The position numbers and the translations under genes are program-made. Below the pieces are notes generated by a model, which was not told the origin of the DNA, searched no databases, and saw nothing but the letters and a program-made list of their open reading frames with translations. A stretch of 64,000 bases of DNA, from contig JAKAKS010000008.1 in NCBI GenBank assembly GCA_021813405.1, forward strand, positions 62,771 to 126,770, given 5' to 3'. The stretch is from Nitrospirota bacterium (GTDB taxonomy: Bacteria; Nitrospirota; Thermodesulfovibrionia; Thermodesulfovibrionales; JdFR-88). Position 1 is the stretch's first letter. Each line of letters begins with the position of its first letter. This document shows positions 1,202-60,301 of the stretch, one piece after another.

Positions 1202-2538
1202 TGCGCACCGTGGACATCATAAGGAAGAAGCGGGACGGCGGCTGCCTTGCGCCTGAAGAGATATCGTCTTTAATTCAGGGGTACAGCGCAGGCGCGGTGC
1301 CCGATTACCAGATGGCTTCCTTTTTGATGGCCGTTTATAACAATGGCATGCGCGATGATGAAACCATGGCCCTTACCCAGGCCATGCTCAACTCCGGCTC
1401 CAGGCTGGACCTGAGCGGCGTCACCGGCATTAAAATAGACAAGCACTCCACCGGCGGCGTGGGCGATAAAACCAGCATCATCCTGGCTCCTCTCATGGCG
1501 GCTATGGGGCTTAAGGTGCCCATGATAGCCGGGCGCGGGCTGGGCCATACCGGCGGAACCATAGACAAGCTTGCCTCCATTCCCGGTTTAAGCACGGAGG
1601 CCGGCCCGGAAGATATTCGGGAACGGCTTAAAACAGTGGGCTGCTCGATCAGCCGGCAAAGCGGCGCGATAGCCCCCGCGGACAAAAAGATATACGCCCT
1701 GCGGGACGCCACCGCAACTGTGGAGTCCATCCCGCTTATAGCGGCAAGCATCATGTCGAAAAAACTTGCCGAGTCTCTTGACGCCCTTCTTCTGGACGTG
1801 AAGACCGGCTCCGGCGCGCTGACAAAGGACATTGAAGGCGCCAGAAAACTTGCCCGGCTTATGGTGGACATCGGCAACTCCATGGGTGTAAAGACCGCGG
1901 CCGTTATAACCGATATGGACGCGCCGCTCGGGCGCGCCGTGGGCAACAGCCTGGAGGTAAAGGAATGCGTATCCGCCCTTAAAGGCAAGGCCGCGCCGGA
2001 CCTGATGGAAGTCACGCTTGTGCTTGCCGCATGGGCGCTGCACCTGGCCGATTCTGTAAGCGAAGAGGTGCCGGTGAGGACAATGGCCGGTCCCGTTGTG
2101 GCCGGTTATAAAAACGAGGTATTCGATTACCTTGAGCACGCCGACGCATTCAAGAAGTTCGCCGAGTTTGTGGATGCCCAGGGTGGAGACCCGGAGGCCG
2201 CTTTCAAGCTGTCGATGCTGCCCGCGGCAAAGGAAATCAAGACGGTAGAGTCCCCGTGGGAAGGATATATAAGAAAACTGGACGCCTTTGCCGTTGGCCA
2301 TGCCGCGGCGCTCCTTGGCGGCGGACGGGACAGGATGGAGGATGATGTTGACCTGTCGGCCGGTATCCTGATAAACAAGAAACCCGGGGACAAGGTGGCC
2401 AAAGGGGAGCTGCTTGCCACGCTGCATACCAATGACACCGCCCGGCTAAAGGAGGCCGGCGAGGTCTATCTTTCCGGGATTGAGATAACGGAGCGCGACC
2501 TGCCTGCCAGGAAACTTATTCTGGACGTAGTGGTCTGA
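1201..2538 (+). CDS. deoA: Thymidine / pyrimidine-nucleoside phosphorylase
   Basis: 445 aa. Family motifs KIDKHSTGGVGDK and GRGLGHTGGTIDKL. Typical length. Confidence 0.9.
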   Translation: MRTVDIIRKKRDGGCLAPEEISSLIQGYSAGAVPDYQMASFLMAVYNNGMRDDETMALTQAMLNSGSRLDLSGVTGIKIDKHSTGGVGDKTSIILAPLMAAMGLKVPMIAGRGLGHTGGTIDKLASIPGLSTEAGPEDIRERLKTVGCSISRQSGAIAPADKKIYALRDATATVESIPLIAASIMSKKLAESLDALLLDVKTGSGALTKDIEGARKLARLMVDIGNSMGVKTAAVITDMDAPLGRAVGNSLEVKECVSALKGKAAPDLMEVTLVLAAWALHLADSVSEEVPVRTMAGPVVAGYKNEVFDYLEHADAFKKFAEFVDAQGGDPEAAFKLSMLPAAKEIKTVESPWEGYIRKLDAFAVGHAAALLGGGRDRMEDDVDLSAGILINKKPGDKVAKGELLATLHTNDTARLKEAGEVYLSGIEITERDLPARKLILDVVV

Positions 2539-2665
2539 TTCAAAGCCTGTCCTGTAATTTCCATTTGACTTTTTCCGTGGAAGTGCAAAAATCTTCATAT
2601 ACGGTTTGAGCACGTAAAAAATGCCTTCCTCTTGCTAACTGAAAGCCGGTCAAAAGGAGAATGCC

Positions 2666-3124
2666 ATGGGTAAAAACAGGATTTCATGGTTGATGGCTGT
2701 CATTTTAGTGCTTTTCGCTGCTACCGTGGCGCAGGCCGCCTGGAGGGGCGGCATGGGCAGCGGCGGATGGGGTATGGGGTCGGCTTACCAGAGGATGTAC
2801 AATCCGCAGACCATTGAAACGGTTTCCGGTGTTGTGGAATCCGTGGAGAAATTCAAACCGATGAGAGGGATGTATTCCGGGATACACCTTATGGTCAAAA
2901 CGGAAAAGGGAGTTGTCCCGGTGCACCTTGGGCCGGACTGGTACATTGACAGGCAGGATGTAAAGTTTAAAAAGGGAGACAAGGTGGACGTTACGGGCTC
3001 AAAAATTACGTTTGATGGAAAGCCCGCAATCATCGCGCAGCAGATAAAAAAGGACGGCGGCACGCTTGTGCTAAGAAACAGCGCAGGCATACCGGAATGG
3101 GCAGGATGGCGCAGAGGCAGATGA
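2666..3124 (+). CDS. Secreted protein of unknown function (beta-rich, OB-fold-like C-terminal domain)
   Basis: 152 aa. Signal peptide ...LVLFAATVAQA, Gly/Trp-rich linker, AAGGAG RBS upstream. Confidence 0.6.
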   Translation: MGKNRISWLMAVILVLFAATVAQAAWRGGMGSGGWGMGSAYQRMYNPQTIETVSGVVESVEKFKPMRGMYSGIHLMVKTEKGVVPVHLGPDWYIDRQDVKFKKGDKVDVTGSKITFDGKPAIIAQQIKKDGGTLVLRNSAGIPEWAGWRRGR

Positions 3125-3150: not shown

Positions 3151-3381
3151 CCGGTTAGCCGTTACCGCGGCATTTGCCGATATGCCTTTAAGCTCTCATC
3201 TTGGTTTTTTCTTTTTCCGAGGGCGGTGTTCGTCTGCGTTATGGCGCGGTCTTTTCCACCAGATCCACCGTGGTACCATGCGCGGCTCACATGAATACGG
3301 CAAACGGCCATCGCCGCTTGACTGCCGGCAGGTCCGCCGCGCCAATTCGCTCACAACCCGCCACGCTTTGCCCGGTACGTC
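3151..3381 (-). repeat. R1 interspersed structured element, copy A (candidate ncRNA)
   Basis: On the minus strand it contains GTGAGCGAA, CCGTATTCATGTGAGCCGCGC (3280-3300, identical to 58243-58263) and TAACGCAGACGAACACCGCCC (3221-3241), followed by TCGGAAAAAG. Only weak ORFs overlap it. Confidence 0.6.
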
Positions 3382-3566
3382 AAATGCAACATCAAAAAAT
3401 CTCTGTGAATAATTCGGGAGATGTCCCCAGATTATGCTGAGGCGCGCCCCTAACAGAGTCGAACACTGCCCCGCGAAAAAGTAAAACCCGGCTATTTTAA
3501 GATTCAGGTATATCGGCGAACGCCGCAAATAAACTTGCCCTATAGGAAACCAGCAGAGCCAAAAAT
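3325..3566 (+). repeat. R1 element, diverged copy F, head-to-head with and overlapping copy A
   Basis: GGTCCGCCGCGCCA (compare AGTCCGCCGCGCCA at 58161). TAACAGAGTCGAACACTGCC at 3451-3470, followed by CCGCGAAAAAGTAAAACCCGG (compare copy B). 3' ATATCGGCGAACGCCGC...CAGCAGAGCCAAAAA. Confidence 0.45.
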
Positions 3567-3642: not shown

Positions 3643-4089
3643 ATGATTGCGTTGTACAATAAAAACTCAGGGAGGGGAGAAGTGAAACTGTTTTTTTCTG
3701 CAACTTCAATTTTATTATGCCTTTCTTTAGTGAGCTGCGCCTCGATCATACACGGAACATCTCAGGATGTAGGTTTTTCAAGTACGCCGCCTGGGGCTTT
3801 TGTCACTGTCGACAATCATCCCGAATGTACAACTCCATGTGTAGCCCACCTCAAGCGAAGGGATAACCATGTAGTTAAAATGGATCTCAATGGGTATCAA
3901 ACATTTAGTGCTACGCTTACGAGAGAGGCATCCGGTTGGGTATGGGGAAATATAGTATTTGGCGGCCTTGTAGGTCTTGTAGTGGATGCCGTAGATGGCG
4001 GTTTTTATAACCTTACTCCAAAACACGTTACGGCCACATTAGTTGCTAAGCCTACAACGACAGCTCTAACGAATAGCACTGGGAAATAG
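3643..4089 (+). CDS. PEGA-domain lipoprotein
   Basis: Lipobox LSLVSC. PEGA-like core PPGAFVTVDN...NGYQTFSATL. Gly-rich hydrophobic C-terminus. The real start is probably GTG 3682, behind GGAGGGGAG. Confidence 0.7.
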   Translation: MIALYNKNSGRGEVKLFFSATSILLCLSLVSCASIIHGTSQDVGFSSTPPGAFVTVDNHPECTTPCVAHLKRRDNHVVKMDLNGYQTFSATLTREASGWVWGNIVFGGLVGLVVDAVDGGFYNLTPKHVTATLVAKPTTTALTNSTGK

Positions 4090-4198: not shown

Positions 4199-4570
4199 CA
4201 TGACACAAACTTAATGACATATGTCATATTGACGATGTCATGGCCTGCCGGGGTAAGATGGCGCTGGCAGAGGGGCTTGCCCGTTCCTGCTCTTTGAAAA
4301 AATGCCGTAAAATGACCGGCAAGCCGGAGAATAACCGCTAAAACGTTAATGTGACGCGGAGAGGTCCAAATCTCAAAAAAATCTCAAAAAATACGGCCAG
4401 TTACGTCTGGAACAGGCTTTTTGGGGCGAAAAATCAAAAACTTTTAAAATCGGGCAGTCAGGCGGAATTGACAACGGAAAAGATGGAACAAATGGAACAA
4501 AAATTTGGCCTTAAGCGGGCCGGAAATAAACGGAAATCCCGAAATTGCCGGAACATATAAAAAGAAAAGG
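4199..4570 (+). repeat. R2 element copy 1 (nested palindrome, GGA/GGAAC direct repeats, A-rich tail)
   Basis: CATGACACAAACT (4199-4211), TGGAACAAAAATTT (4493-4506) and GGAACATATAAAAAGAAAAGG (4550-4570) are each identical to blocks at 60618-60630, 60997-61010 and 61053-61073. Confidence 0.6.
4200..4243. promoter_or_regulatory. PAL motif: ATGACA-N8-ATGACATATGTCAT-N8-TGTCAT
   Basis: Central perfect 14-bp palindrome ATGACATATGTCAT at 4214-4227, with outer ATGACA/TGTCAT half-sites. Related sites at 16667, 30112 and 60611. Confidence 0.55.
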
Positions 4571-4585
4571 CTTGGCGGGGGCTTT

Positions 4586-7690: not shown

Positions 7691-8239
7691 TTACTGGCCC
7701 TTGCTCCCGGCGGAGGTTGCCAGCATGTCGTTATATTTCTCTATTACCTCTTTTGTGAGGTCCGTGGCGCCGTTGGCGTAGAGCACCGAGTCCGCCGGCA
7801 GGATGAGATTGTAATTCTCCTTCTTCCCGATGGCGTCTATCACCTTCTTGAGGCCTTCTACTATCACGATCTCTTTCTCCTGCTGCTTCTTCTGTATGTC
7901 CTGGACGGCGTCATTGTTGATCCTTTCGGCGTCCCTGTTAAGCTTTTCTATCTGGTCCTGCTTCTCTCTTACCGCATCGGAAGACAGCACCAGGCTCTGC
8001 CTGTCCAGGTCCGCCTTCAGCGCGTCCCTTTCGTCTATTTTTTTTGCTATGCGGGCCTGGTATTTTTTCTGTATCACTTCCAGGTCCCTCTTGGCCTGCT
8101 TGCCTGCATCGGACTCGTTTATGGCCTTTTGATAATCCACGTAGCCTACCTTCAACTCCGCCGCTGCGGCATGGCCGGCAAACACCGTCTGTCCGGCCGT
8201 GAGGGCCAATGCAAATATCATAGTCAGAATGGTTTTCAT
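7691..8239 (-). CDS. skp: Periplasmic chaperone Skp/OmpH
   Basis: 182 aa. Signal peptide, charged coiled-coil region. Located between bamA and lpxD. Confidence 0.85.
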   Translation of the reverse strand: MKTILTMIFALALTAGQTVFAGHAAAAELKVGYVDYQKAINESDAGKQAKRDLEVIQKKYQARIAKKIDERDALKADLDRQSLVLSSDAVREKQDQIEKLNRDAERINNDAVQDIQKKQQEKEIVIVEGLKKVIDAIGKKENYNLILPADSVLYANGATDLTKEVIEKYNDMLATSAGSKGQ

Positions 8240-8290
8240 CTTTCCTCCAGTATGGTATTCATGCCGGTGAGGGCGGGCATTCAGACCCGC

Positions 8291-10663
8291 CTAAAAGAAC
8301 CCGCCGAACGTGAATTCGAACCGGTTTCTCTTCTCATCGTAATTTTTCCTTATGTTGTAGCCCCAGTCTATGCGGATGGGGCCTATGGGCGATATCCACC
8401 TGATGCCAACCCCCGTAGTATACCTGTAATCCCTGGGCAGCAGGGTGTCATACGCGCTTCCCGTGTCGAAGAACACTTCGCCCTTGAATTTAAAGGCGCT
8501 TACAAGCGGGAATATGTAATCCACATCGGCTATGGCCTCGTTCAGGCCGCCTATGGGCTCATCGTTAATATCGCGCGGGCCGCCCTCTCCATAGCCAAGC
8601 CCCATAACCGTGTAGATACCGCCCACGTAAAATCTCTCATATAGCGGCACGGCCTTGCCAAACAGTCCAGTGCTGTAACCCAGCGCCCCCGAGAGTGCAA
8701 GAGTGGTGTCGTCAGAAAGCGGGATGTACCAGGATGTGTCAAACTCGCTTTTTAAATAATCGTTGTCGCCGCCTATGCCAGCGAATGTCAGGTAGAAGCT
8801 GTTTTTAGAGCCTGTATGGGGATCCAGGTAGTTGTCCCTGGTGTCCCGCGCAATAGTGGGCGTTATGCTGCTTGTCAGCTTGGAGCCGGCCTGGTCCTGT
8901 ATCTGTGGGCTTGCGGTGCCAAGCACGCCGTAGATATTGTCGTTTTCCAGTTTGTAGTTTGCCCCGATCCACCAGTTTTCCCAGTAATTCTTGTTCAGGC
9001 CGAAGGTAAAGCCCGTCGCCTTGCTTGCATAATCCAGGTAGGTCCTGCTGGATTTGTAAATGGATGTGGACATCGCAAGCTTCTGGCCCAGGAACCACGG
9101 GTCCATATAGGTGAATTCATAATCGGAGGAGATGCTGCCCAGTTCCCCCTTCAGTTTTATCGCGCGCCCGGTGCCCCCGAGATTGGACTGGGTGATATCC
9201 ACCATGCCGATTATCTTGTCCACGGAGCTGTAACCGCCTCCTATGCTGAAGAAGCCGGTGCTCTTTTCCTTTACGTTTACATCAAGGTTCACCAGTTTTT
9301 TCTCCGGGATGGGTTCCGGCTGGATGGCCACGGAATCGAAGAAGTTAAGGTTGTTTATGTTCTGATAGCTTTTCTTGAGCTTTGCGCTGTTGAAAAGGTC
9401 CCCTTCGTTCAGGGTTATCTCGCGCCTTATAACGTGGTCCTTGGTCTTGGTGTTGCCGGAAATCTCTATCCTGCCCACATGGTACTGGTCCCCTTCATCC
9501 ACGGTGAAGCCTACGGAAACGGTCTTTGCGGCCGTATCCGGCGCCAGATTTGGGGAGATGCTGGCAAGGGCGTAGCCCTTCTCGGCGTATTTGTTGGTGA
9601 TGTCCACCACGTCTTCGCGCAAAAGCGCCCGTGACAGGGGTTTGCCTGTTTTTATCTTCAGTGACTTCTCTAGTTCCGGCGTGCTGAACACCTTATTGCC
9701 GGAGAAGCTTACTGAGGAGAGTCTGAACTGGTCCCCTTCGGAGATTGCGTATTTGACGTAAGCCCATTTCCTGTTTGGCGAGAAAGTGACGTCCGGGCCT
9801 GAAACGGATGCCTGGAGATACCCATTATTGAAGTAAACGTCCGCTATCTTTTCCGCGTCCGCCTGAAGGTCGTTCTTCTTGTAATAGCCGCCCTTTGTCA
9901 GGAAAGAGAAAAAGCCCCGTTCCGTGCTGGTCATGGCTTTTCTGAGTTTGCTGGAGGGTATATGCTTATTGCCCACGAATTCTATCTTCTTTATCATCGT
10001 CTTGGGGCCTTCTTTTATCATGAACACCAGGACGGCCTCGTAATCATTTAGCTTGTGGACAATGGGCACCACCTGGGCAAGCCCGAAGCCCTCGTCCTCA
10101 TATAGATGCCGCAGCTTTACAACGTTGTCATTGATAAGCACGGTGTCAGCAACGGCCCCGGTGGGCACCTTGATCTTGTCGGTGATTTTTGAGGTGCTGA
10201 GTTCCTTGTTGCCGTAGAACTGCACGTTTATAATGGAAGGCTTTTCCTTGACTATATAGATGAGCTTGATGCCGCCCTCAAATGGCTCGGCATCTACCTT
10301 AACGTCATCGAAGTACCCGGTTGCGAAGATGTTTTTTATGTCTTTTGTGACAGCCGAGGGAGACAGCGGAAGTCCCACGCCCTGGCTTATGTGCTTCCTG
10401 ACCGCGCCCGCTTCGATCTTCCGGAGCCCCTGTATCTCGATGGCTACAACATTAGGCTCGGCCTGTTTGGGCTGGCCTGAAGACTCGTCCGCCATCGCCA
10501 GGCCGGCCGCGGCAGGCGTTATTAGAACCAGCGCCGCAAATACCAGGCTTATCGCGGTAAGTAAAACTGCCGTACGTGCTGTTGCCGGATACCCGGCATT
10601 ATTCTTAGAGGGGGAGAACACTCCTAAGCGCCTTGCTGCCAACGTACCTCCAGGTTTTTTCAA
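8291..10663 (-). CDS. bamA: Outer membrane protein assembly factor BamA
   Basis: 790 aa. POTRA repeats followed by an Omp85 barrel ending ...NRFEFTFGGFF. Confidence 0.9.
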   Translation of the reverse strand: MKKPGGTLAARRLGVFSPSKNNAGYPATARTAVLLTAISLVFAALVLITPAAAGLAMADESSGQPKQAEPNVVAIEIQGLRKIEAGAVRKHISQGVGLPLSPSAVTKDIKNIFATGYFDDVKVDAEPFEGGIKLIYIVKEKPSIINVQFYGNKELSTSKITDKIKVPTGAVADTVLINDNVVKLRHLYEDEGFGLAQVVPIVHKLNDYEAVLVFMIKEGPKTMIKKIEFVGNKHIPSSKLRKAMTSTERGFFSFLTKGGYYKKNDLQADAEKIADVYFNNGYLQASVSGPDVTFSPNRKWAYVKYAISEGDQFRLSSVSFSGNKVFSTPELEKSLKIKTGKPLSRALLREDVVDITNKYAEKGYALASISPNLAPDTAAKTVSVGFTVDEGDQYHVGRIEISGNTKTKDHVIRREITLNEGDLFNSAKLKKSYQNINNLNFFDSVAIQPEPIPEKKLVNLDVNVKEKSTGFFSIGGGYSSVDKIIGMVDITQSNLGGTGRAIKLKGELGSISSDYEFTYMDPWFLGQKLAMSTSIYKSSRTYLDYASKATGFTFGLNKNYWENWWIGANYKLENDNIYGVLGTASPQIQDQAGSKLTSSITPTIARDTRDNYLDPHTGSKNSFYLTFAGIGGDNDYLKSEFDTSWYIPLSDDTTLALSGALGYSTGLFGKAVPLYERFYVGGIYTVMGLGYGEGGPRDINDEPIGGLNEAIADVDYIFPLVSAFKFKGEVFFDTGSAYDTLLPRDYRYTTGVGIRWISPIGPIRIDWGYNIRKNYDEKRNRFEFTFGGFF

Positions 10664-13196: not shown

Positions 13197-13292
13197 GCCC
13201 CGGTTTTTTCTTTTTTTAGCTGTGCGGGCAATTCGCCTGCATGGCTGGATTCTCATTTTCAAAGACTTTTATCTGCAAGAAACCATGAGGAA

Positions 13293-13480
13293 CCGGTTTG
13301 GCTATTCCGGAATTCCTGTGGGTGTATGGCGTGCTCCCAAAGGCTGTCACTCCAGAGCGAACAGCCGGATCCTGAGTCTTAGTGGCGGGTTTTACTTTTT
13401 CCGCGGGACGGTGTTCGTCTCCATTGGGGCCGCCGTCTTACGATTTTCTTTTGTTCAAATCATCGCTCATTTACCACCCG
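13293..13480 (-). repeat. R1 element copy B (candidate ncRNA)
   Basis: The minus strand reads GGGTGGTAAATGAGCGATGA...AATGGAGACGAACACCGTCCCGCGGAAAAAG...GCCTTTGGGAGCACGCCATACACCCACAGGAATTCCGGAATAGCCAAACCGG. The last module closely matches 17199-17246. Confidence 0.55.
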
Positions 13481-13569
13481 TTCCCCCCCCCGGGTAACGC
13501 AAACCAAACGGGCAGGGAACCCGGGAGAGTCAAATCCTGAAGCCCCTTTATTTAAAGGGCCCGGAAATG

Positions 13570-13601
13570 AAAAGCGCAGCCCGTTTGTGAGCGGGCCGCG
13601 C
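13570..13601 (-). terminator. Rho-independent terminator for the 13622-14365 gene
   Basis: Minus strand GCGCGGCCCGC-TCACAAA-CGGGCTGCGC followed by TTTT. Confidence 0.6.
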
Positions 13602-13621
13602 TTTCGCCAGATGTTTAAGAG

Positions 13622-14365
13622 TTACTTTGTGCCCTTTTTTGCAGGCCCGGCTTTAAGTGCCTTCTTTTGGCCTGCCGCAGGCGCCGGGGTGTTTGCCACC
13701 GCTGCCGCGGGCGAGTTCGCCAAAAATGGCGAGGACGGGAAGTTCTGTCTTAACGTGCCAAGCTCCCTTTGGGCTTCCGTTTTGTTGCCTATCGCATCGT
13801 AAATGCGGGCGCTTTCATAAAGGGCAAGGTCTTTCAGCGAGGCGGATTTATCATTTTCAATGGCCCCAAGGTATTTAAGGGCGTCCTGCTGGTTGCCCAT
13901 TTTCATAGAGGCCATTGCCATCCTGTACTTGGCAAGAGGCACCAGCCCGTCATCCGGGAACCCGGCTGCCAAGTTTGAGAATGTCTTGATGGCATCGGCG
14001 TATTTCCCCATATCATACTGGATGGACCCTATGTAAAAAAGAGGATAGGCCGATTCCTTTGTATTATAGGCCTCCTGGAATTTTTCAAGTGCTTTTTGAA
14101 GCCTCTCGTCCTTTGTCATTGGCTCTTTAAGGTAAAGGTTGTAATAGAGCTTGTAGCCCTGGTAATTGAGATTGGTGGACTTGCTGTTCCGGTAGCTTAT
14201 ATAAAAATAGATGCCTCCGGCCAGCACCAGCGCGGCAACGGCGGCCGCCCCCGCAACAATAAGAGAGCGCTGCTTTGCTTTCAGGTTTTCTTTTATTTGT
14301 TCAAAGTCCTCAGCCTGCTCCGGCCGGGGTTTTTTTACAGATCTTTTTTTAAGGGATTTAGGCAT
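13622..14365 (-). CDS. Membrane-anchored TPR-like protein (YfgM-like architecture)
   Basis: 247 aa. Basic N-terminus, one TM (LIVAGAAAVAALVLAGGIYFYI), helical-repeat periplasmic part. Confidence 0.65.
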   Translation of the reverse strand: MPKSLKKRSVKKPRPEQAEDFEQIKENLKAKQRSLIVAGAAAVAALVLAGGIYFYISYRNSKSTNLNYQGYKLYYNLYLKEPMTKDERLQKALEKFQEAYNTKESAYPLFYIGSIQYDMGKYADAIKTFSNLAAGFPDDGLVPLAKYRMAMASMKMGNQQDALKYLGAIENDKSASLKDLALYESARIYDAIGNKTEAQRELGTLRQNFPSSPFLANSPAAAVANTPAPAAGQKKALKAGPAKKGTK

Positions 14366-15020
14366 CCGTCCTCCTCAGGGCTTTTTCCAGTATGGTCCGT
14401 GAATTCTCGAAAACCCTCCCGGCCTCATCCGGCGTAAGCCCGGCGCCAAACAGCACTTTAAGGGCCGTTGCCTTCGCTATAAGGTCCGAGGGGGAATGTG
14501 CGTCTGTATTGATTACCATCCGGGCACCTGCCATCGCAGCTGCCTTTGCAACGTGCCCGTTTGATATTGAATGGCCTTTCCTGGCGGTTATCTCCAGCGC
14601 AACGCCTTTTTCCTTAGCCGCCCGCGCGTCATCAGGGGAGATGAGCCCGGGATGGGAAAGAATGTCAGCCAGGGCCTCAATGGCCGCCCGGTTTGTGCCT
14701 TCCTTCACAGGCTCGGCAAGGGTCTCTCCATGCACAACTATTATGCGCGCGCCAAGCCTTCTGGCCTCCTGCACCAGTTCCGCTATAAGGGCCGGCGGAA
14801 CGTGGGTAATCTCCGCTCCCGGCACAATGTCCAGTGAAACATGTCCTTTCAGCTTTGCAACCGCCTTCACCAGCGCTGGCACCACGGAATCTATATTGGA
14901 TGCGTCCACGTGGTCGGTTATCGCCAGCCCGGAAAGGCCCAGCGCTTCGGCGCGCCTGGCAAGCTCAAAAGGCAGGAGCTCTCCATCGCTAAGCACGGTA
15001 TGGGTGTGCAGATCGATCAT
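14358..15020 (-). CDS. PHP-domain metal-dependent phosphoesterase (histidinol-phosphatase-like)
   Basis: 220 aa. MIDLHTHTVLSDG... and ITDHVD motifs. Confidence 0.8.
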   Translation of the reverse strand: MIDLHTHTVLSDGELLPFELARRAEALGLSGLAITDHVDASNIDSVVPALVKAVAKLKGHVSLDIVPGAEITHVPPALIAELVQEARRLGARIIVVHGETLAEPVKEGTNRAAIEALADILSHPGLISPDDARAAKEKGVALEITARKGHSISNGHVAKAAAMAGARMVINTDAHSPSDLIAKATALKVLFGAGLTPDEAGRVFENSRTILEKALRRTDA

Positions 15021-15110
15021 ATCCTAGAAAGATAACGGATTTACAGGGAAATTGTAAAGTTTTAAGGGGGTTATGGCCTATTTGATTTGCGCAAACCGGT
15101 ATGCGTTTTA

Positions 15111-16568
15111 TTAAACGGCATTTGTGCGCCTGGTCTTAAACAGCATCCAAACCGTGCCCCACCACAGAAAAAGCGTGCTGAAAAGCACAAGCCCAAAATC
15201 CCGCAGATAGAAGAAAAAGCCTTTATCTATCGAGGTGAGCAGATGGCTTGCCGCAAGGAATATCAGCATTGCCTTCCAAGCAGGCGGCATATGCCCGTAT
15301 GAGTAGCGGTCCCATATCAGAAATACCATCAGCGTTGTAACCGGCAGCAGCATGGAGACGTAATGCGGATGGAACACAGGGCTGGCCACAAGCATAAGCG
15401 GCGTGAGTGATGCCAGCAGAAGCGTATCATGTATATTTTCATAGCTGTTGGGACTGCCTGGGAGCCGGAGTCCTTTGTGCCAACCAGCCGCTGCCAGGGC
15501 TGTTATAACCAGCAAAACCGCGATAATCCAGTGCGTGGCGCGCACCCAGGGCGCGGCAGTTGGCGGGCGCTGCTGCCGGGGCACCGAGGCGTACATGATA
15601 TTGTGCATTACCACCATGGGTGAGTTGCTGTCCGTACTGGTAATCCCCGTAAGCTCTCCGCCAACGGCGCTTTTTGTGCTTCCCTGCAATCCCCCCTTTA
15701 TTACCTCGGTGTAAAAAGAGTTGTAGGCCTTTACGGTCCGCGCTGGCCCCATGGCCGCAAGCGGTATGAGGCCAAGGGTCAAAATAAGCCCAACCGCAAT
15801 CCCGCCCAGCATGCGCCAGGAACGCCGCCAGACTGGCATCAGGATTAATAACGCCGGGATCAGCTTTATGGCAATCGCCGCAGACAGCCAGATGCCTGCA
15901 CGGAATTTTCTGCCGCGTACAATGTTTGCGGCAGTCACGCAAAGGATAAACGCAATCAGCAGGCCTGCCTGTCCGCGCATCTGGGAACGGCCTATTGCGG
16001 GCAAAAGCGCCAGAACAGGCACTATCCTTAGCGCCCACCAACGCCTGCTTGAAACAAGCGGCGGCCCGCTGGCCGTATACGGTATCTCTTCCAGCGCGCT
16101 GGCCAGGATGTGCACTCCCCAGAACCCCAGCGCCATTGTAAGCAAGTACCAGAACCCCACTGTAACCGCATACGGTACATAGCCAGCCCGGCTGGCCCCG
16201 GCAGGCGGGTCCGCCAGCGGCGTCATCAGCACGGCAAAAAAGGGCGGGTAGACGTAATGCCATCCCCTATCATCCGTGATGGAGTAAATATCGCCTTCAT
16301 TTCTGATGGCCCATGCAGCCCTGAGATAGGTACCCACATCGGTCTTGCGCGTGTGCTGGAGCGCGCCCCTCAGTTCCACCCAACCCCCAAAGAGGACAAC
16401 AAGCGCAACCAATGCCCAAAGCCATCCGCGCATGCGGCTTGAAAGCTGGGCTGCCCCCGGTTCTTCTTCAGGCTTGGGCGGTTCAATCTCAACGCGTACA
16501 GGGTGGGCCCTGGCGGATGCAGTGCCGGGCTCCGGGATTAAATCGGGTGTTTTTAATTCCTCAGGCAT
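15111..16568 (-). CDS. Polytopic membrane glycosyltransferase-like protein (DUF2029/GT87-like)
   Basis: 485 aa with many TM segments. WHYVYPPFFAVLMTPL loop typical of the DUF2029 family. Confidence 0.65.
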   Translation of the reverse strand: MPEELKTPDLIPEPGTASARAHPVRVEIEPPKPEEEPGAAQLSSRMRGWLWALVALVVLFGGWVELRGALQHTRKTDVGTYLRAAWAIRNEGDIYSITDDRGWHYVYPPFFAVLMTPLADPPAGASRAGYVPYAVTVGFWYLLTMALGFWGVHILASALEEIPYTASGPPLVSSRRWWALRIVPVLALLPAIGRSQMRGQAGLLIAFILCVTAANIVRGRKFRAGIWLSAAIAIKLIPALLILMPVWRRSWRMLGGIAVGLILTLGLIPLAAMGPARTVKAYNSFYTEVIKGGLQGSTKSAVGGELTGITSTDSNSPMVVMHNIMYASVPRQQRPPTAAPWVRATHWIIAVLLVITALAAAGWHKGLRLPGSPNSYENIHDTLLLASLTPLMLVASPVFHPHYVSMLLPVTTLMVFLIWDRYSYGHMPPAWKAMLIFLAASHLLTSIDKGFFFYLRDFGLVLFSTLFLWWGTVWMLFKTRRTNAV

Positions 16569-16666
16569 GTCTTATGTACTATGCATGTTTTAAGCGGGGC
16601 TTTTCAACTGTGGATATCCCCCGGATGTCCCGGAACGGATTTTTTAACTTTGTTAAAAATGCTGGC

Positions 16667-16705
16667 ATGAATTTCATGACATATGTCATATGGACAATGT
16701 CATGG
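16667..16705. promoter_or_regulatory. PAL motif copy 2
   Basis: ATGAAT-N3-ATGACATATGTCAT-N8-TGTCAT. About 100 bp upstream of the divergent 16568 start codon. Confidence 0.55.
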
Positions 16706-16906
16706 CAACCGGTGTTTCAATAGGGGCAGGGCGGTTTTGTTTTGCCGCCAGGATCTTTTAAAAGCCTGATACAAGACGGGATCGCCACGGCCAATATGGC
16801 CTTGCCATTACAAAGCAAAGATTGAACGGATTTGAACGGTGAAATACGTGAAATGTTTTAAAATCAAAGGCTTGCGGATTTCAGGTTGAACACTAAAAAA
16901 AAGGGG
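16667..16906 (+). repeat. R2 element copy 2 (PAL, ATTTGAACGG direct repeat, A-rich tail), immediately upstream of R1 copy C
   Basis: ATGACATATGTCAT at 16676-16689. ATTGAACGGATTTGAACGG at 16821-16839. TTGAACACTAAAAAAAAGGGGG at 16886-16906 (compare GGAACATATAAAAAGAAAAGG). Confidence 0.55.
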
Positions 16907-16966
16907 GTTCTTCAGGATTTCCTGTGGGTAAAACAACTGCTTTTGCAGGCCGTTTGGTTTGCCTTG

Positions 16967-17250
16967 CCCGGGGAAGCGGGCGGTTTCGCGGAGTGGGCTG
17001 TGCGTGCGTACGTCTGCAAGTGCCTGGCTAGCAATAGCTCCGGCGCGGGCAAATTCGGTGAGACTGGTAAAGACATGGCGGAATCTAACGCAGACGAACA
17101 CCGCCTGCGAAAAAATCAGAGAGCAGGCTGGCCATTGGCAAATGAGTCAGCAGTGGCGGAAGCGAAGCCGTTGGGGTCCGGCTTTCGCCGTGGTGAGCGC
17201 CTTTGAGAGCACGCCATATAACCACAGGAATCTCGGTAGAGCCAAAAAAA
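16967..17250 (+). repeat. R1 element copy C (candidate ncRNA)
   Basis: TAACGCAGACGAACACCGCC at 17086-17105. 3' module GCCTTTGAGAGCACGCCATATAACCACAGGAATCTCGGTAGAGCCAAAAAAA at 17199-17250. An upstream CGTCTGC (about 17010) is complementary to GCAGACG. Confidence 0.6.
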
Positions 17251-17262
17251 GGAGGCAGCCGG

Positions 17263-17964
17263 TCAGGCGGGGGTTCTTGCAAGGGCCAGGACGAACACCT
17301 CTTTTGCACCGGCCTTAAGTAGCGCTTTGGCGCAATGGTGCGCGGTGGCGCAGGTGGTGATAACATCGTCCGCAAGGATAATCCGCAGGCCGTTCGCGCA
17401 TGCGTCTGCCTTGAAGACGCCGCGAAGGTTTTTAAGCCGTTCCTCCCGGTTCAGGGAGGATTGGGGCAACGTGGCCCTGGTCTTTAAAAGCGCGTGCGGC
17501 AGGAATTCAAGCCCCTTCTCATCAGATATCGCCTTGCCTAAAAGAAGGCTCTGGTTAAAGCCCCTTGCAAGTATGCTTTTTTTTGAAACCGGCACGGCCG
17601 CCACGGCGTCCGCCTCCGGCATTTCAATGGCTGAAAGCAGCCTGGCAAGCGGCGCGCCCAACCTGCGTACCTTAGAGAACTTGAAGGCGTTAATCGCTTC
17701 TTTAAGCGTATCGCTGTACAGCCCATAATAAAAAGCTTTTGTAAACGCGGGCCTCTTTTCAATGCACCGCTGGCAGGTGACGGAGTAGGCGGAGACAAGC
17801 GGCTCTCCGCAGATATTGCAGCGCGGCCCCTCATATAACGGCATTGAATTCCAGCAACTGGAGCAAATGGGAGAGTGGGAGAACACGTCCGAAACAAGCC
17901 CGCACACAGGGCAATTGGAGGGGAAGACCGTTTTTAAAAGAGGGCGGGCCAGCAGGCCCGCCAT
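17263..17964 (-). CDS. comF: ComF family protein (amidophosphoribosyltransferase-like)
   Basis: 233 aa. N-terminal Cys-pair zinc fingers (CPVC..CSSC, CNIC..CQRC). PRTase motif IILADDVITTCAT. Confidence 0.85.
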   Translation of the reverse strand: MAGLLARPLLKTVFPSNCPVCGLVSDVFSHSPICSSCWNSMPLYEGPRCNICGEPLVSAYSVTCQRCIEKRPAFTKAFYYGLYSDTLKEAINAFKFSKVRRLGAPLARLLSAIEMPEADAVAAVPVSKKSILARGFNQSLLLGKAISDEKGLEFLPHALLKTRATLPQSSLNREERLKNLRGVFKADACANGLRIILADDVITTCATAHHCAKALLKAGAKEVFVLALARTPA

Positions 17965-17983
17965 ACCCTTGAAATCCGAGAGG

Positions 17984-20862
<2,879 letters not shown>

Positions 20863-25280: not shown

Positions 25281-25471
25281 TTTATTCCACCGAGAAAAAA
25301 TTTAATAAGACTATCATTGCATGGTCATTTGCGCCAGTCCCCATTTGGGGCATGGGAATCTAAATAAAATCATAATTTCAGATTGGTGATAGAATATGGC
25401 TGTAAGGGATAATTGCTCAGTTTTTTTAATTGGCCTGACTGGCCGTTGTCCTTGTGTGTGCAGGTGAGGAA

Positions 25472-25993
25472 ATGGACCGCACAATTGATGCAAGGATAAA
25501 AGATGCGATTGAAGCTTTTGAAAAGCTTCAAAAGAAATCACCTTTTATTTTTATCCACGATGGCGATTACTGGCTAAACCCTCACGCCAGGAAGCTTATC
25601 CACCGCAAGGCCATACCTGTTGACGATTTCATTGCATGGCTCAAGATAGGCGTTGCCCACCTGAAGAAATTCTCATATGATGATTTGACTATAAATATGG
25701 CGCAATTGCCGGGGGGTGCCGTTTTGGTTTTTTTGCAGCAGGAGGATAAAGGGGCCGGCGCCTGCCCCAGGGTGGATCTCACTATTAAGGAAAGGGAAGT
25801 GCTACGCCTTGTTATACGAGGGTTTTCCAACAAGAAGATTGCCGAATCTATGAGGATAAGCCCGCAAACTGTAAATGCCCACCTGGACCATGTGTACCAG
25901 AAGCTTGGCTGCTCAAACAGGGCGGCGGCCGTTACAATTGGGTTGAAGAACGGCCTTTTCCTTCCCCGGCGCGGTGAAAATAAACATTCCTGA
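25472..25993 (+). CDS. LuxR-family transcriptional regulator with an uncharacterised N-terminal domain
   Basis: C-terminal HTH LTIKEREVLRLVIRGFSNKKIAESMRISPQTVNAHLDHVYQKLG. ATG 25472 lies behind GGTGAGGA (the ORF-track start at 25454 is also possible). Confidence 0.75.
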   Translation: MDRTIDARIKDAIEAFEKLQKKSPFIFIHDGDYWLNPHARKLIHRKAIPVDDFIAWLKIGVAHLKKFSYDDLTINMAQLPGGAVLVFLQQEDKGAGACPRVDLTIKEREVLRLVIRGFSNKKIAESMRISPQTVNAHLDHVYQKLGCSNRAAAVTIGLKNGLFLPRRGENKHS

Positions 25994-29207: not shown

Positions 29208-29232
29208 AATTTAATAGGAGGTGAACCGGCCA

Positions 29233-29418
29233 ATGTACCTGGTCAGCGTTGATGTAAACAAGTGTACAGGGTGCGAGGAATGCGTGAACGTGTGCCCTAA
29301 CAGCGTCTTTCAGATGACCGATGGGAAATCCGATCCGTATCAGGGTTCCGAGTGCGTGTTTTGTGAAAGCTGCCTCGGCGTATGCCCTTCTGCCGCAATC
29401 ACGATTACAGAAATGTAA
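29233..29418 (+). CDS. 2x[4Fe-4S] ferredoxin
   Basis: CTGCEECVNVCP and CVFCESCLGVCP motifs. AGGAGG upstream (GTG 29221 is an alternative start). Confidence 0.85.
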   Translation: MYLVSVDVNKCTGCEECVNVCPNSVFQMTDGKSDPYQGSECVFCESCLGVCPSAAITITEM

Positions 29419-29646: not shown

Positions 29647-29955
29647 ATGAAGGTTAACTGTTGGGAATTTAAAAAGTGCGGCCGAGAGGCGGGCGGGGCC
29701 AATGCAAAGCAGCTCGGTGTTTGTCCTGCTTCCGTAAATGATCCGCTGCACGGAGTGCATGGAGGCGTAAAAGGAGGCAGGGCCTGCTGGGTGATCTCCG
29801 GTACCCTCTGCGAAGGCACGCTCCAGGGCACTTTTGCAAGGAAATTTGGTTCATGCAAGGAGTGCGAGTTCTATCAGCTGGTAAAAAAAGAAGAGTCTCC
29901 CAATTTCATGCTTTCAGCCACATTGCTAGCCAAGGTAGGCAAGGCGGCGTCCTAG
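29647..29955 (+). CDS. Stand-alone Cys-rich protein resembling the two-CW domain
   Basis: 102 aa. NCWEFKKCGRE ... RACWVISGTLCEG ... GSCKECEFY (7 Cys). Strong RBS AGGAGG, very AT-rich upstream region. Confidence 0.75.
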   Translation: MKVNCWEFKKCGREAGGANAKQLGVCPASVNDPLHGVHGGVKGGRACWVISGTLCEGTLQGTFARKFGSCKECEFYQLVKKEESPNFMLSATLLAKVGKAAS

Positions 29956-30006: not shown

Positions 30007-30111
30007 CAATAGGCACGGGCGTCAATAAGAAGGTCTAAATTTCACTTTCAGGATACCTCGACCAACGCGCGTAATTTCAGGTGCATCAAACATTAGCGGT
30101 CCGCCGTAAAC

Positions 30112-30139
30112 ATGACATGAAAATCATGGCATATGTAAT
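30112..30139. promoter_or_regulatory. PAL motif copy 3 (degenerate)
   Basis: ATGACA-N8-ATGGCATATGTAAT. Confidence 0.4.
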
Positions 30140-30154
30140 ATAAAAAGAAAGGGG
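30112..30154 (+). repeat. Miniature/degenerate R2 element (PAL fused directly to the A-rich tail)
   Basis: ATGACATGAAAATCATGGCATATGTAATATAAAAAGAAAGGGG. It ends 14 nt from the stop of the convergent methyltransferase gene. Confidence 0.45.
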
Positions 30155-41016: not shown

Positions 41017-41803
41017 GTTTTTTATTTTCGCTTTCGCATTTCTCTTCCTTGCAGCAGCTCCGATTGTTGCCGCAGGTGACACATCCGGTCCATCATCTTC
41101 TCAATCCGCGCAACAGACCGTTCTTCCCGCAAACCCTTCCGATTACGTTATGGACCTTGCGGGGATAATAGATGCGAACACAGCCTCGCGCATAGACGCG
41201 CTGTTAAAGGAGCTTGAGGAAAAGACCGGCGCGCAGGTTGTGGTCCTCACCGTCCCAAGCCTTAATGGGCAGGACATTGAGCAATTCTCGGTTGATACCG
41301 GCCAGAAATGGGGGCTTGGACAAAAGGGCAAGGATAACGGTTTCCTTTTTGTTGTGGCCCCAAATGAAAGAAAATACTGGTTTTCAACCGGGTACGGGCT
41401 TGAAGGCACTCTTCCGGACAGCTATCTTGGCACCCTTGGCAGACAGGTTTTGGTGCCCGCATTCAAGGCCGGCCAGTATTCGCAAGGCATAGAACAGGCC
41501 GTTGGAGTGGTCGCGCAGCGGATAGCAAGCCGGAAGGGCATAACCCTTACAGGCGTGCCGCAGCCTCAGCAGATGGAGCGCCAAAGGGCCTCTTTTGTCC
41601 CGCTCATATTCGGGGGCCTGTTCTTTCTGCTTATCATTATATCGGCATTCAGGGGCGGCCTGCCCCTCATCCTTTACCCGTTGCTCTTCGGAGGCGGCGG
41701 ATGGGGCGGAGGCGGCGGGTTTGGCGGCGGTTTCGGGGGCGGAGGCTTTGGCGGAGGCGGCGGAGGCAGTTTTGGCGGAGGCGGAGCGGGCGGAAGCTGG
41801 TAA
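41000..41803 (+). CDS. TPM-domain protein (YgcG-like) with TM and poly-Gly tail
   Basis: 267 aa. Signal peptide, TPM pattern (AQVVVLTVPSL...GFLFVVAPNERKYWFSTGYGLEG), C-terminal GGGGWGGGGGFGGG... Confidence 0.85.
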   Translation: MRLKSRFFIFAFAFLFLAAAPIVAAGDTSGPSSSQSAQQTVLPANPSDYVMDLAGIIDANTASRIDALLKELEEKTGAQVVVLTVPSLNGQDIEQFSVDTGQKWGLGQKGKDNGFLFVVAPNERKYWFSTGYGLEGTLPDSYLGTLGRQVLVPAFKAGQYSQGIEQAVGVVAQRIASRKGITLTGVPQPQQMERQRASFVPLIFGGLFFLLIIISAFRGGLPLILYPLLFGGGGWGGGGGFGGGFGGGGFGGGGGGSFGGGGAGGSW

Positions 41804-58154: not shown

Positions 58155-58410
58155 CCCGGAAGTCCGCCGCGCCAGGTAAGGCGGGGTGGGTAGTGAGCGA
58201 AGTGGCCGGGCGAGCCATTTCTGACCAGTGGCGCGGCGTTGGCCGTATTCATGTGAGCCGCGCGGCGCAGTTCTTAATTTATTGAAGCGAGACTAGGCCC
58301 TGTAACGCAGACGAACCCCGCCCCTCGGAAAAAAGGAAAAACTCAAATGAGAGGGCCAGGCGTACCGGCGAATGCCGCCGGAAAACGGAACAAGAAGGGC
58401 CCCGGACCGG
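58155..58410 (+). repeat. R1 element copy D (candidate ncRNA; best reference copy)
   Basis: AGTCCGCCGCGCC (58161-58173) is complementary to GGCGCGGCG (58230-58238). GTGAGCGAA. CCGTATTCATGTGAGCCGCGC (58243-58263). TAACGCAGACGAACCCCGCC (58303-58322) followed by CCTCGGAAAAAAGG. Confidence 0.6.
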
Positions 58411-58478: not shown

Positions 58479-58985
58479 TCATTTTCGAAGCCCATTTTTT
58501 ATTTTTAGCAATCCATCTACAACCCTTCTGTTTGACGGGTCTTTCTGGAGGGCCTGTTTTAAATAAAACTCCGCCCGTTCAGGCAGCCCAAGCTTCAGGT
58601 AAACCAGCCCAAGTTCCGCCTGGATGGCTGGGTCCTCCCGGTCCAGCGAAAGCGCGCGGTGAAGTATCTTTACGGCTTCCTTGTGATTTTCCAGCCTGGC
58701 AAGCGTAGAGCCGTAATAAAACATGTATTCCGGTCTTTTCGGGTCCAGCCCCGCAGCGAGGGTGAAAAACACCTCCGCCTTTTTAAAGTCGTTGTTCGAA
58801 TAATAAACCCTGCCCTGGTTGAAATTCTCCGATGCGGATTTTGGGTCCGGCGCAAGCTTTACCGAAGCCCCCGGCCTAAGCGTTGCATCGTAATTTATCC
58901 GTTTCGCGGGGTCTATCAGGTTAGCGTACGCAATCGAAATCCTGGAAAAAATAGCATTGAGCTTGTCCGTCAGTTCCACTGGCAT
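58479..58985 (-). CDS. 3' segment of a frameshifted J-domain/TPR gene (C-terminal J-domain helices plus TPR repeats)
   Basis: 168-aa ORF. The same frame stays open upstream and reads GQKAEPPEIKKAYYKAAREFHPDKNFH before the annotated M. TPR units follow. Confidence 0.7.
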   Translation of the reverse strand: MPVELTDKLNAIFSRISIAYANLIDPAKRINYDATLRPGASVKLAPDPKSASENFNQGRVYYSNNDFKKAEVFFTLAAGLDPKRPEYMFYYGSTLARLENHKEAVKILHRALSLDREDPAIQAELGLVYLKLGLPERAEFYLKQALQKDPSNRRVVDGLLKIKNGLRK

Positions 58986-59038: not shown

Positions 59039-60301
59039 TTATCTCCGGAGGTTCCGCTTTTTGTCCCAGAGGCCAAGCATTTCGTAATGGTCGTATTTTC
59101 CAAGCATCCGGTGCATCTCGTCTATCCTGGTGATTTGCTCTTTGGTTATATTCAGCGCATTTTCGCTAGCAGCGCTTGTGGGGCCGGTGTTATCGTTCCT
59201 TGTGCTGCCGGCATCACCGGCCGGAACCGGTCCTTCAACTTTCCCGGTGTATGCTCCTCTTGCCGTGGCCGGTTTAGAGCGCCCGGCGTCTTCGCGGCTT
59301 TCTTCCGGTGCGTCCTGGCTTGTTTCAGGCTGGTCTTTCAGCTCAAGGGTCCTTGCGTAGAGCAGGGCGTAAATAGTTTGCAAGGTCTTCGATTCAGGAA
59401 AGGGGGCTTCCTTAACAATTTCACTGAGATGCCGCCGCCCATCCGCCAGAGACATTATCATTTTGTCCTCGGAGGGAATCTTCATCGCCTGGAACAGATG
59501 CAGCGGATAAGAAAAAGGCGCGATAACGGAATCTTCCCGCAGCCCAGCCTCAAAAACCGCATTTTTATCGGCTGTGCGCTTGATGCCGCGATAGATCAGG
59601 TCCGGCGCGGAAATCTTCAGCCGCAGCAGGTTGTCGGGGAGCGGGCCATCATGGAAAAGAAAGGACCCTTCATGTAGGGAAAACACCCCAAGGCAAATCT
59701 CCTCCAGTTGACTGTAAACGGCTTTTATCATGTCATTTGGCGTAAGAGCGCCCAGTTCCACAAGGATGGCGCCCTGTTTCCTGCCGGTGGTTTTTAAAAG
59801 CTCCACGGATTTTTCGTACTGTTGGCGGGTGATTGTCCCCTTCCTAAGAAGCATGTCACCGAGGCTGTCTTCCACCTGGTTGGATGAAGAAAAGACGATA
59901 TTGCCCTGCTGCAAGTATATTTTCCTGACGGCCTGGTCTCTTCTGAATTCCAGAACACCGGTTTCTGCCGCCCCGCAGAGCCCCGTAAATATGTCTGGCG
60001 CCGTGAAAACGGAAAGCGAGCCTTCCACGTTTCTGGCCAGCGAGAGCCCTATTTTCTGGCCGCCGTGCCATATCACTTTGGCTTCGCAATGGAAATCAGG
60101 GTTTTTGCAGGAGACCTCAATTGTCCGGCCTACCGCCGAGAGGATTTTCCTGTCCGCCTGGACGCCTGCGCCCAGGATTGAATAGTCTTGCAGGGTGGCT
60201 TCTGCCGTCTCTTTGTTTATGGTTATCCGGAGCGGATTGTCTTTGCTGTTTTTAAACCTTCTGAACTGCCTTTTTTCGGGCGATTGCCAGCGTTTGCTCA
60301 T
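59039..60301 (-). CDS. 5' segment of the same gene: PilZ + DUF4388 + start of the J domain
   Basis: PilZ motifs RQFRR and DYSILG. DUF4388-like LEFRRDQAVRKIYLQQGNIVFSSS...LGDMLLRKGTIT. Ends ...KYDHYEMLGLWDKKRNLRR*, so the J domain is interrupted. Confidence 0.7.
   Translation of the reverse strand: MSKRWQSPEKRQFRRFKNSKDNPLRITINKETAEATLQDYSILGAGVQADRKILSAVGRTIEVSCKNPDFHCEAKVIWHGGQKIGLSLARNVEGSLSVFTAPDIFTGLCGAAETGVLEFRRDQAVRKIYLQQGNIVFSSSNQVEDSLGDMLLRKGTITRQQYEKSVELLKTTGRKQGAILVELGALTPNDMIKAVYSQLEEICLGVFSLHEGSFLFHDGPLPDNLLRLKISAPDLIYRGIKRTADKNAVFEAGLREDSVIAPFSYPLHLFQAMKIPSEDKMIMSLADGRRHLSEIVKEAPFPESKTLQTIYALLYARTLELKDQPETSQDAPEESREDAGRSKPATARGAYTGKVEGPVPAGDAGSTRNDNTGPTSAASENALNITKEQITRIDEMHRMLGKYDHYEMLGLWDKKRNLRR

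Follow-up and report, generated by a model that had tools for sequence, protein, structure and literature searches.

A putative mosaic of two intergenic repeat families between a GT87 glycosyltransferase gene and comF in a Nitrospirota bacterium

Does an ordered series of conserved motifs in one intergenic gap make up a single regulated gene, or a juxtaposition of separate elements? This question is raised by a 64,000-nt stretch of a Nitrospirota bacterium contig (JAKAKS010000008.1; hereafter the window), in which a GT87 glycosyltransferase gene (15111-16568, minus strand) and comF (17263-17964, minus strand) are separated by a 695-nt gap that carries two repeats in succession: R2, which comprises a palindromic block (PAL), tandem direct repeats and an A-rich tail, and R1. 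The original prediction read the series as a self-contained regulated RNA gene, with R2 as the promoter cassette of R1 or the two as halves of one larger element. We compared the copies of both repeats across ~75 kb of this genome, including the window and a 6.2-kb right extension, and in a handful of contigs from relatives. The explanation that we favour, with moderate confidence, is that two independent, lineage-specific families of intergenic repeats make up the gap as a mosaic, in which the PAL-containing module of R2 (R2a) would be a factor-controlled promoter and R1 would resemble a transposable element of the miniature inverted-repeat kind (MITE).

Two repeat families in the GT87-comF gap

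The observation behind the prediction is real yet partly mis-described. Its motifs are in place and non-random: the PAL centre ATGACATATGTCAT at 16676-16689, which lies inside a 45-nt palindromic block (16661-16705); ATTGAACGGATTTGAACGG at 16821-16839, followed by TGAAATACGTGAAATG; TTGAACACTAAAAAAAAGGGGG at 16886-16907; and a member of the R1 family that ends ~13 nt before the comF stop codon (17263). The PAL pattern gave seven strand-matches at four window sites (4200-4241, 16662-16703, 30112-30139 and 60619-60660) versus 0.00 expected in shuffles, and a 20-mer of the R1 core has three exact occurrences in the window (0.00 expected). The R1 copy in the gap (copy C, R1-C) does exist, but the extent assigned to it, 16967-17250, was too small: its inverted termini lie at 16906-16930 and 17219-17243, and its start coincides with the G-run of the R2 tail.

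The proposed coupling of the two repeats did not hold up. The order R2 then R1 had been reported to recur at 60611-61370; an R2 copy is located there (60618-61075), but the sequence after it (61076-61437) has no R1 similarity. Smith-Waterman comparison of this segment with all five R1 copies on both strands gave z ≤ 2.5, versus z = 5-42 for true R1 pairs, and a search with a hidden Markov model (HMM) of the R1 core found no match in it. Across the ~75 kb, the R2-then-R1 junction occurs at one of four full R2 copies, and four of the five R1 cores have no R2 upstream. One related contig (L007) shows the opposite order, R1 being upstream of PAL, and the comF locus of a related species (L019) carries R2 and no R1. 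On this tally the adjacency appears incidental, and a role of R2 as promoter cassette of R1, or as one half of a joint element, finds no support. PAL and the block downstream of it do resemble an operator/promoter cassette, but its cargo is not R1.

A comparison at the orthologous locus is provided by L019, a contig from a related species with a syntenic purA-comF-...-GT87-PHP-TPR arrangement (ComF protein 81% identical, coding DNA 77-84%). Downstream of comF it contains a complete R2 in the same orientation, composed of PAL, GGTGTTTTAATAGGGG, a hairpin, TCTTTGAAAAGC, TTGAACAGGTTGAACA and a third box with AAAAAAAGGGAGGG; the hairpin is accompanied by CTTTGAAAA, there are two TTGAACA boxes, and a single AAAAAAAGGGAGG forms the tail, 10 nt from the comF stop. 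Between PAL and GT87 this contig has an inserted vapBC pair, and GT87 retains its conserved upstream region. More distant relatives (ComF 55-58% identical) have neither R1 nor R2, and their comF-PHP interval differs in each. Judged from this synteny, R2 has long resided in the 3' flank of comF. Since R2 occupies the same locus in L019 without R1, R1-C counts as an indel against that arrangement, with an insertion into the A-rich R2 tail as the simplest account; the R2-R1 adjacency would then stem from the insertion site, not from function.

Between comF and PHP (15020-17263 in the window) lies a variable hot spot that contains GT87 alone here, vapBC, GT87 and an amidohydrolase gene in L019, nothing in L020, and three small open reading frames (ORFs) of unknown kind in L023/L024. 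ComF homologues from 58% identity downward are all from Nitrospirota, Nitrospiraceae or Nitrospira; the label "Actinomycetota bacterium" that NCBI puts on the proteins of this genome is probably a taxonomic mistake.

Both families are specific to this poorly sampled lineage of Nitrospirota, with one related contig each retrieved by scans of public genomes (L007) and metagenomes (L016). The R1 core 20-mer matched four loci in 185,579 species genomes, three of them chance matches in coding regions and only L007 real. A relaxed PAL pattern matched 11 loci in JGI metagenomes, only L016 being real. Viral contigs returned no match to the full PAL pattern or to the R1 core; five uninspected viral matches to the 16-mer CATGACATATGTCATG are at about chance level.

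An operator-like block with fixed downstream geometry in R2

R2 is present in the ~75 kb as four full copies and one compact copy. Copy 1 (w1; 4199-4572, plus strand) is flanked by two convergent genes, its tail ending 15 nt short of the lpxI stop, and copy 2 (w2; 16661-16907, plus) is the one in the GT87-comF gap. Copy 3 (w3; 60618-61075, plus) occupies the divergent gap between a PatA_N gene and a trypsin-like gene. Neither copy 1 nor copy 3 is followed by R1. The remaining full copy (L029x) belongs to a fifth PAL site on the same contig, 9.6 kb to the right of copy 3 (L029 280-323). In the compact copy (w4; 30110-30154, plus), the left two-thirds of PAL run straight into ATAAAAAGAAAGGGG, with the stop codon of a convergent methyltransferase gene 13 nt away. 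The full copies compared below are the three in the window, L029x and that of L019; the seven PALs examined are these plus the ones in L016 and L007. R2 copies are 70-85% alike. At four loci a convergent stop codon (that of lpxI, the methyltransferase gene, an MFS transporter gene and, in L019, comF) is 10-26 nt away from the R2 tail. Just upstream of the compact copy we noted a small ORF with the Cys pattern of a 2x[4Fe-4S]-type ferredoxin (29221-29418, plus) and a gene for a 102-aa Cys-rich protein with no Pfam match (29647-29955, plus).

PAL of copy 2 (16661-16705; nhmmer E = 2.6e-13) is a 45-nt block of alternating TGACA and TGTCA pentamers, with homologues at 4199-4243, 60618-60661 and 30110-30141 in the window and at L029 280-323, L019 2515-2556, L016 13106-13150 and L007 4076-4120. 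At its centre (16676-16689) ATGACAT abuts ATGTCAT in a perfect dyad, with further dyads ~14.5 nt to either side. In the copy alignments the half-sites are conserved, and the 8-nt spacers of the right arm are kept too but lack complementarity with the left arm, a combination that fits protein binding better than a hairpin. The palindrome of copy 3 has eight further complementary bases, giving arms of 30 nt in all. The central 14-mer has one site in a more distant, 45%-GC relative (L035 14382-14395). Near this single site, the metagenome-assembled genome concerned (L034/L035) encodes an IS3-type transposase and two tyrosine integrases (7875-9049, 2323-3084 and 17236-18534).

Downstream of PAL the spacing is rigid. 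In copy 2 a -10-like TTCAAT (16716-16721, plus), preceded by TGT, is placed 33 nt away from the dyad centre, with a spacing of 19 nt to the -35-like TGGACA before it. A TAnnAT-like hexamer is found exactly 33 nt from the dyad centre in seven of seven PALs: TAAGAT, TTCAAT, TATGAT, TATGAT and TTTAAT in the five full copies, TATCCT in L016 and TATGGA in L007. Four of the seven carry a TGn extension, and the nearest -35-like hexamer (TTGACG, TGGACA or TTGACA; TKGACR) is 19 nt upstream. Every R2 then continues with a hairpin of variable sequence and a conserved CTTTNAAAA block; in copy 2, a terminator-like site call and the copy alignments place the GC hairpin at 16730-16749, followed by TCTTTTAAAAGC (16730-16765, plus). 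These hairpins are no more stable than shuffled sequence and share no consensus structure. R2a also occurs without the second module, R2b, before an M15 peptidase gene in L016 and before a DUF218-like ORF (named from its sequence alone) in L007, the co-directional protein gene starting 110-240 nt after PAL in both.

The rigid operator-hexamer geometry, the co-directional genes in two relatives and the single 14-mer in L035 point to a factor-controlled rightward promoter at R2a. PAL most likely binds a dimeric transcription factor cooperatively, and its overlap with the -35-like TKGACR would make the promoter factor-dependent and rightward-firing. The 19-nt spacing suggests the same dependence on a bound factor. 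With no protein gene downstream, the R2a transcript would cross R2b toward the 3' end of the convergent neighbour; at comF it is predicted to run through R2b and R1-C and on into comF in antisense.

Promoters of the MerR family are factor-dependent and have an over-long spacer of 19-20 bp with a dyad centred inside it. R2a resembles them in the series TKGACR, 19 nt, TAnnAT, in its dyad operator DNA and in the same geometry in all copies. Unlike in MerR-type promoters, the PAL dyads lie at or upstream of the -35 (roughly at -31, -46 and -60), and no MerR gene adjoins any copy. Other candidate factors fared no better. Sites for sigma-54, extracytoplasmic function (ECF) sigma factors, RpoH, LexA, Fur, CopY/BlaI and CRP/FNR were compared with PAL and the GAAC boxes of R2b by eye only, and none fits both sequence and spacing. 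The LuxR-type regulator encoded divergently from PAL in L016 was considered as the PAL-binding factor, but no PAL is found upstream of its window paralogue (25454-25993, plus). A literature search with the PAL sequence returned no relevant operator, and a reading of PAL as replication origin or terminus was rejected, the window having no switch in GC skew.

In L016, the LuxR/GerE-type gene divergent from PAL lies at 13283-13789 (plus; 168-179 aa including the window paralogue), and the M15 peptidase gene downstream of PAL is joined by two small genes of unknown kind in an arrangement that resembles a lysis cassette.

R2b, a purine-rich stretch, lies at a variable distance from R2a, its first tandem GAAC box being 141-341 nt from the PAL dyad centre. 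In copy 2 it starts with two tandem TTGAACGG boxes with a 10-nt period (16822-16839, plus) and ends with a third GAAC box, TTGAACAC, and an A8 G5 tail (16886-16907, plus); an HMM of R2b matches 16817-16909 (E = 5e-18). Tandem KKGAAC boxes (two or three; period 9-10 nt) are present in five of five full copies, each with a further GAAC box 54, 54, 54, 55 or 56 nt past the last tandem box and an A-run and G-run directly after it. Between the GAAC boxes of copy 2, AATCAAAGGCTTG (16862-16874) matches the integration host factor (IHF) consensus WATCAANNNNTTR; the motif is found at the equivalent place in L029x too and is absent from the other three copies, which makes it a weak lead only. R2b was always accompanied by R2a, with no orphan module in the sequence available. 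RNAalifold predicted 0 base pairs for R2b, and an Rfam hit to CrcZ (16 bits) was rejected as reflecting only its A-rich composition. Short boxes with helical phasing (54-56 nt, ~5 turns) and no RNA structure point to a DNA-protein complex, and R2b as a set of protein-binding sites on DNA fits better than a folded RNA. The fixed GAAC phasing renders this hypothesis concrete and directly testable.

A putatively MITE-like repeat around the R1 core

An nhmmer profile located five R1 cores in the window (3163-3252, minus; 3439-3528, plus; 13347-13436, minus; 17074-17164, plus; and 58291-58381, plus). The core (~90 nt) consists of YTAACGCAGACGAACACCGCC, 4-6 nt, GAAAAAG and a small CGGC-loop-GCCG hairpin, and is the sole part common to all copies. 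In copy C (17074-17164, plus; E = 8e-15) it reads TAACGCAGACGAACACCGCC and then GAAAAAA, and includes the exact 20-mer. Copies A (3154-3375, minus) and D (58172-58391, plus) form one subtype with shared flanks (69% identity over 219 nt), and copies B (13297-13547, minus) and C (16906-17243, plus; 338 nt) share another set of flanks. Copy E (3439-3528, plus) lies head-to-head with copy A and is 89% identical to L007 3809-3897, both being essentially core only. Identity between flanks is 69-80%, versus 89% for the core (copy E against L007).

Several copies have the appearance of insertions. R1-C carries 25-nt imperfect inverted repeats at its ends (16906-16930 and 17219-17243; 72% complementary), which form the closing helix of the predicted minimum-energy fold. 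Directly beyond it, AAAAAAAGGAGG (17244-17255, plus) repeats AAAAAAAGGGGG at 16896-16907, either as a target-site duplication or as the original R2 tail by the comF stop, and AAAAAAAGG(G/A)GG is found at both junctions. On both sides of copy E there is a 16-nt direct repeat, ATGCAACATCRAAAAA (3384 and 3612; 15/16 identical), and copy D, located between convergent genes, has the 10-nt direct repeat ATTATTCCCT on its flanks. Where copy B is located, 425 nt separate the convergent TPR and SLT genes; the two genes abut without a gap in L023/L024.

Bacterial MITEs are non-autonomous elements with terminal inverted repeats, exemplified by the Correia elements (CREE) of Neisseria (PMC3184786, PMC10969869). 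R1-C is like them in its size, intergenic position, inverted termini, short flanking direct repeats and lack of a conserved ORF, and R1 is present or absent at orthologous sites (R1-C versus L019, the R1-B gap versus L023/L024). As with Correia elements, R1 and R2 adjoin gene ends and could carry promoter-like signals. In contrast to MITE families, whose members share termini, R1 is not a clean family: only B and C have termini in common, and A, D and E share the internal core alone. No transposase, and no parent insertion sequence with R1-matching ends, was found in the ~75 kb covered.

Is R1, or the composite, an expressed RNA or a coding sequence? The prediction of a self-contained RNA gene found no support in an Rfam match, a consensus structure, excess folding energy (except at the R1-C termini) or a terminator-like site at the end of the R2-R1 composite. 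At Rfam gathering thresholds the whole window yielded tRNA-Gln only, and at permissive E-values the best sub-threshold hits in three repeat regions scored 14-21 bits versus gathering scores of 37-100. RNAalifold gave four invariant pairs and no compensatory change for the R1 core, which showed no excess folding energy on either strand. Folding z-scores of the repeat regions ranged from -1.5 to +1.2 relative to shuffled sequence, except for the whole of R1-C (z = -2.5), owing to its inverted termini. A tRNA or tmRNA origin of the R1 core was considered and none was found. Six-frame comparison of the R1 copies revealed no conserved open frame, and small ORFs in the R2 copies are in different frames. 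Gene callers place a 106-aa ORF on R1-C that has no homologue but itself among 5.8 billion proteins and, if the mosaic reading holds, is spurious.

Further similarities between copies were observed. The 3' flank of R1-B, CCGGTTCCTCATGGTTTCTTGCA (13270-13300), resembles the comF-proximal flank of R1-C; B/C-type copies may have spread together with flanking DNA. The R1 core segment GAACAC-CGCCTGCG-AAAAAA (17095-17120) resembles the R2 tail GAACAC-T-AAAAAAAAGG (16888-16907) with a GC-rich insert, which may reflect a common binding motif or origin. A 27-nt segment, GCGCGGCTCACATGAATACGGCAAACG (3280-3306 and 58237-58263), is 96% identical between copies A and D, well beyond the identity found elsewhere in this pair, and two Logan contigs (L027, L028) end inside it. 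In L007, a strong ribosome-binding site, AAAGGAGGTG, precedes an ORF of ~51 aa (3900-4045, minus) that is located between R1 and PAL and runs antisense into the R1 core. Copy A adjoins the gene of a 152-aa protein (2666-3124, plus) with a magnetosome-protein-like domain (Pfam PF26390, MamS_MamX).

Within the favoured mosaic, then, R1-C would be a separate MITE-like element that landed in the A-rich R2 tail. Several points weigh against this picture. On the side of R1, besides the termini that are confined to B and C, the flanking direct repeats vary in length (9-16 nt), and the apparent target duplication at R1-C may be part of the element, since A-runs also end copies E and B. Moreover, a second perfect 10-nt repeat, GGGGGTTCTT (16903-16912 and 17269-17278), reaches the last comF codons and blurs the junction. 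On the side of R2a, a consensus promoter scan called no site there, the putative -35/-10 gap of 19 nt exceeds the standard sigma-70 range (16-18 nt), and no regulator could be linked to PAL in the sequence examined. R2 may itself be mobile, now or formerly, given its multiple copies, the contigs that end at PAL and the A-rich flanks of the L029 copy.

If the mosaic is right, two unrelated repeats that pile up in one intergenic hot spot mimic a composite gene, which calls for caution in sequence-only scans and in annotation. R2a would then be of interest in its own right, as a 45-nt multi-dyad operator-like block with a fixed hexamer, reused before protein genes and non-coding DNA in related Nitrospirota, that points to a regulator and its regulon in a lineage without genetics. 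Nothing here overturns current knowledge.

Alternative readings

The strongest alternative, which we consider unlikely though worth serious attention, takes R2 as a non-autonomous mobile repeat with asymmetric ends, of the kind of MITEs, REPINs or bacterial interspersed mosaic elements (BIMEs). PAL would be one end or its hairpin, recognised by a transposase, the three phased GAAC boxes and the IHF-like site would be subterminal binding sites at the other end, and the A-run would be the target, corresponding to the 3'-terminal T-run of a convergent gene; any promoter activity would be incidental. Five PAL sites in ~75 kb are in line with mobility, as are the short-read contigs that stop at PAL (L002, L003 and L032), the two PAL sites between convergent genes with nothing to regulate, the tails 10-26 nt from a convergent stop (w1, w4, L029x and L019), CTAAAAAAA on both flanks of the L029 copy and the 30-nt arms of copy 3. 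The succession of terminal site, IHF-like site and two phased inner sites is also that of a transposon end or an att-like (attachment) site. However, R2 occupies the same locus in two species at ~80% DNA identity, which implies stability rather than recent mobility, and its copies are just 70-85% alike. The A-run and G-run are conserved within subfamilies and hence part of the element, not of its target; the PAL spacers are not self-complementary; and the central 14-mer is a lone site in the distant relative. The sequence available yielded neither a REP-associated tyrosine transposase (RAYT) nor another transposase with matching ends.

The closest mobile counterparts are REP (repetitive extragenic palindromic), BIME and REPIN elements associated with RAYT transposases (PMC2817692); intergenic repeat families have also been described in P. 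fluorescens (PMC2718517). Like these, PAL is a short, extragenic, imperfect and multicopy palindrome, often located between convergent genes or at gene 3' ends, within a modular mosaic. Unlike them, it is an array of TGACA/TGTCA half-sites rather than a GC-rich stem-loop, so that only interrupted stems are possible, and it always precedes the same promoter-like block. The likeness of PAL to REP and REPIN elements is thus confined to its context. Membership takes more than 100 copies per genome and a RAYT; the ~75 kb contain five sites and no RAYT.

A rather improbable further reading holds that R2 copies are undescribed factor-gated transcription units, which would produce an unstructured, purine-rich GAAC-box RNA or act by convergent transcription against the 3' ends of neighbours (lpxI, comF and the methyltransferase and MFS transporter genes), as a regulon in which antisense or collision effects control envelope-related genes, with R1 as secondary cargo at comF. 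Qrr1-5 and PrrF1/2 are multi-copy small RNA (sRNA) families with a shared operator-promoter, conserved folds and intrinsic terminators. The R2 units are comparable in that several paralogous, ORF-less copies open with the same regulator-site-plus-promoter-like block. They differ in their variable middle, in a conserved 3' module that is unstructured and in having no terminator, and R1 is not their cargo.

It is doubtful that R2 should instead be read leftward, as the convergent gene's 3' untranslated region or termination zone (that of comF in this gap) with PAL as its terminal hairpin, or as a long leader for the gene on the left (GT87, vapB or PatA_N). Such a reading draws on the minus-strand tail CCCC-T-run-TA(T/G)(A/T)(T/G)N directly after the stop codon at four loci, on a minus-strand T-run after PAL in w2, L029x and L016, and on the minus-strand genes that start to the left of PAL in w2, w3 and L019. 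Yet in w1, w2 and L019 the T-run has no canonical hairpin before it, and copy 3 has no gene upstream of its tail. As a leader R2 would be superfluous for GT87, which has a conserved promoter-like region of its own and is separated from PAL by vapBC in L019; in w1 and w4 the left gene is convergent, leaving nothing to feed.

We give about as little credence to R1 as a multi-copy family of trans-acting sRNAs, in which the unstructured ~90-nt core would serve as a conserved seed within variable structured flanks. The core is indeed conserved far above the flanks, it is no more structured than shuffled sequence, as a seed would be, and four of six copies aim at the 3' end of a convergent gene. Against this stand the insertion-like junctions of the copies and the missing Rfam match, and no conserved promoter or terminator surrounds the core; expression of R1 is a prediction only.

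Least probable is the single unit, with PAL/R2 as a dedicated operator-promoter and R1 as its expressed RNA, for which one may cite the contiguity of the two on the same strand (16661-17243), the aim of the R2a hexamer toward R1 and the presence of R1 and PAL in one intergenic region of L007 too, but which is largely refuted by the copy tally and is also at odds with the reversed order in L007, the R2 without R1 in L019 and the lack of a conserved fold, terminator or Rfam match in R1.

Elsewhere in the window, two minor features were recorded. With 54 nt between them, a TPR ORF (168 aa; 58479-58985, minus) and a PatA_N/DUF4388 ORF (420 aa; 59039-60301, minus) match one 565-625-aa DnaJ-PatA_N-TPR protein of relatives, and the gene appears to be split or frameshifted here. 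At 41687-41802, a Gly-rich low-complexity coding repeat consists of seven copies of GGCGGAGGC units.

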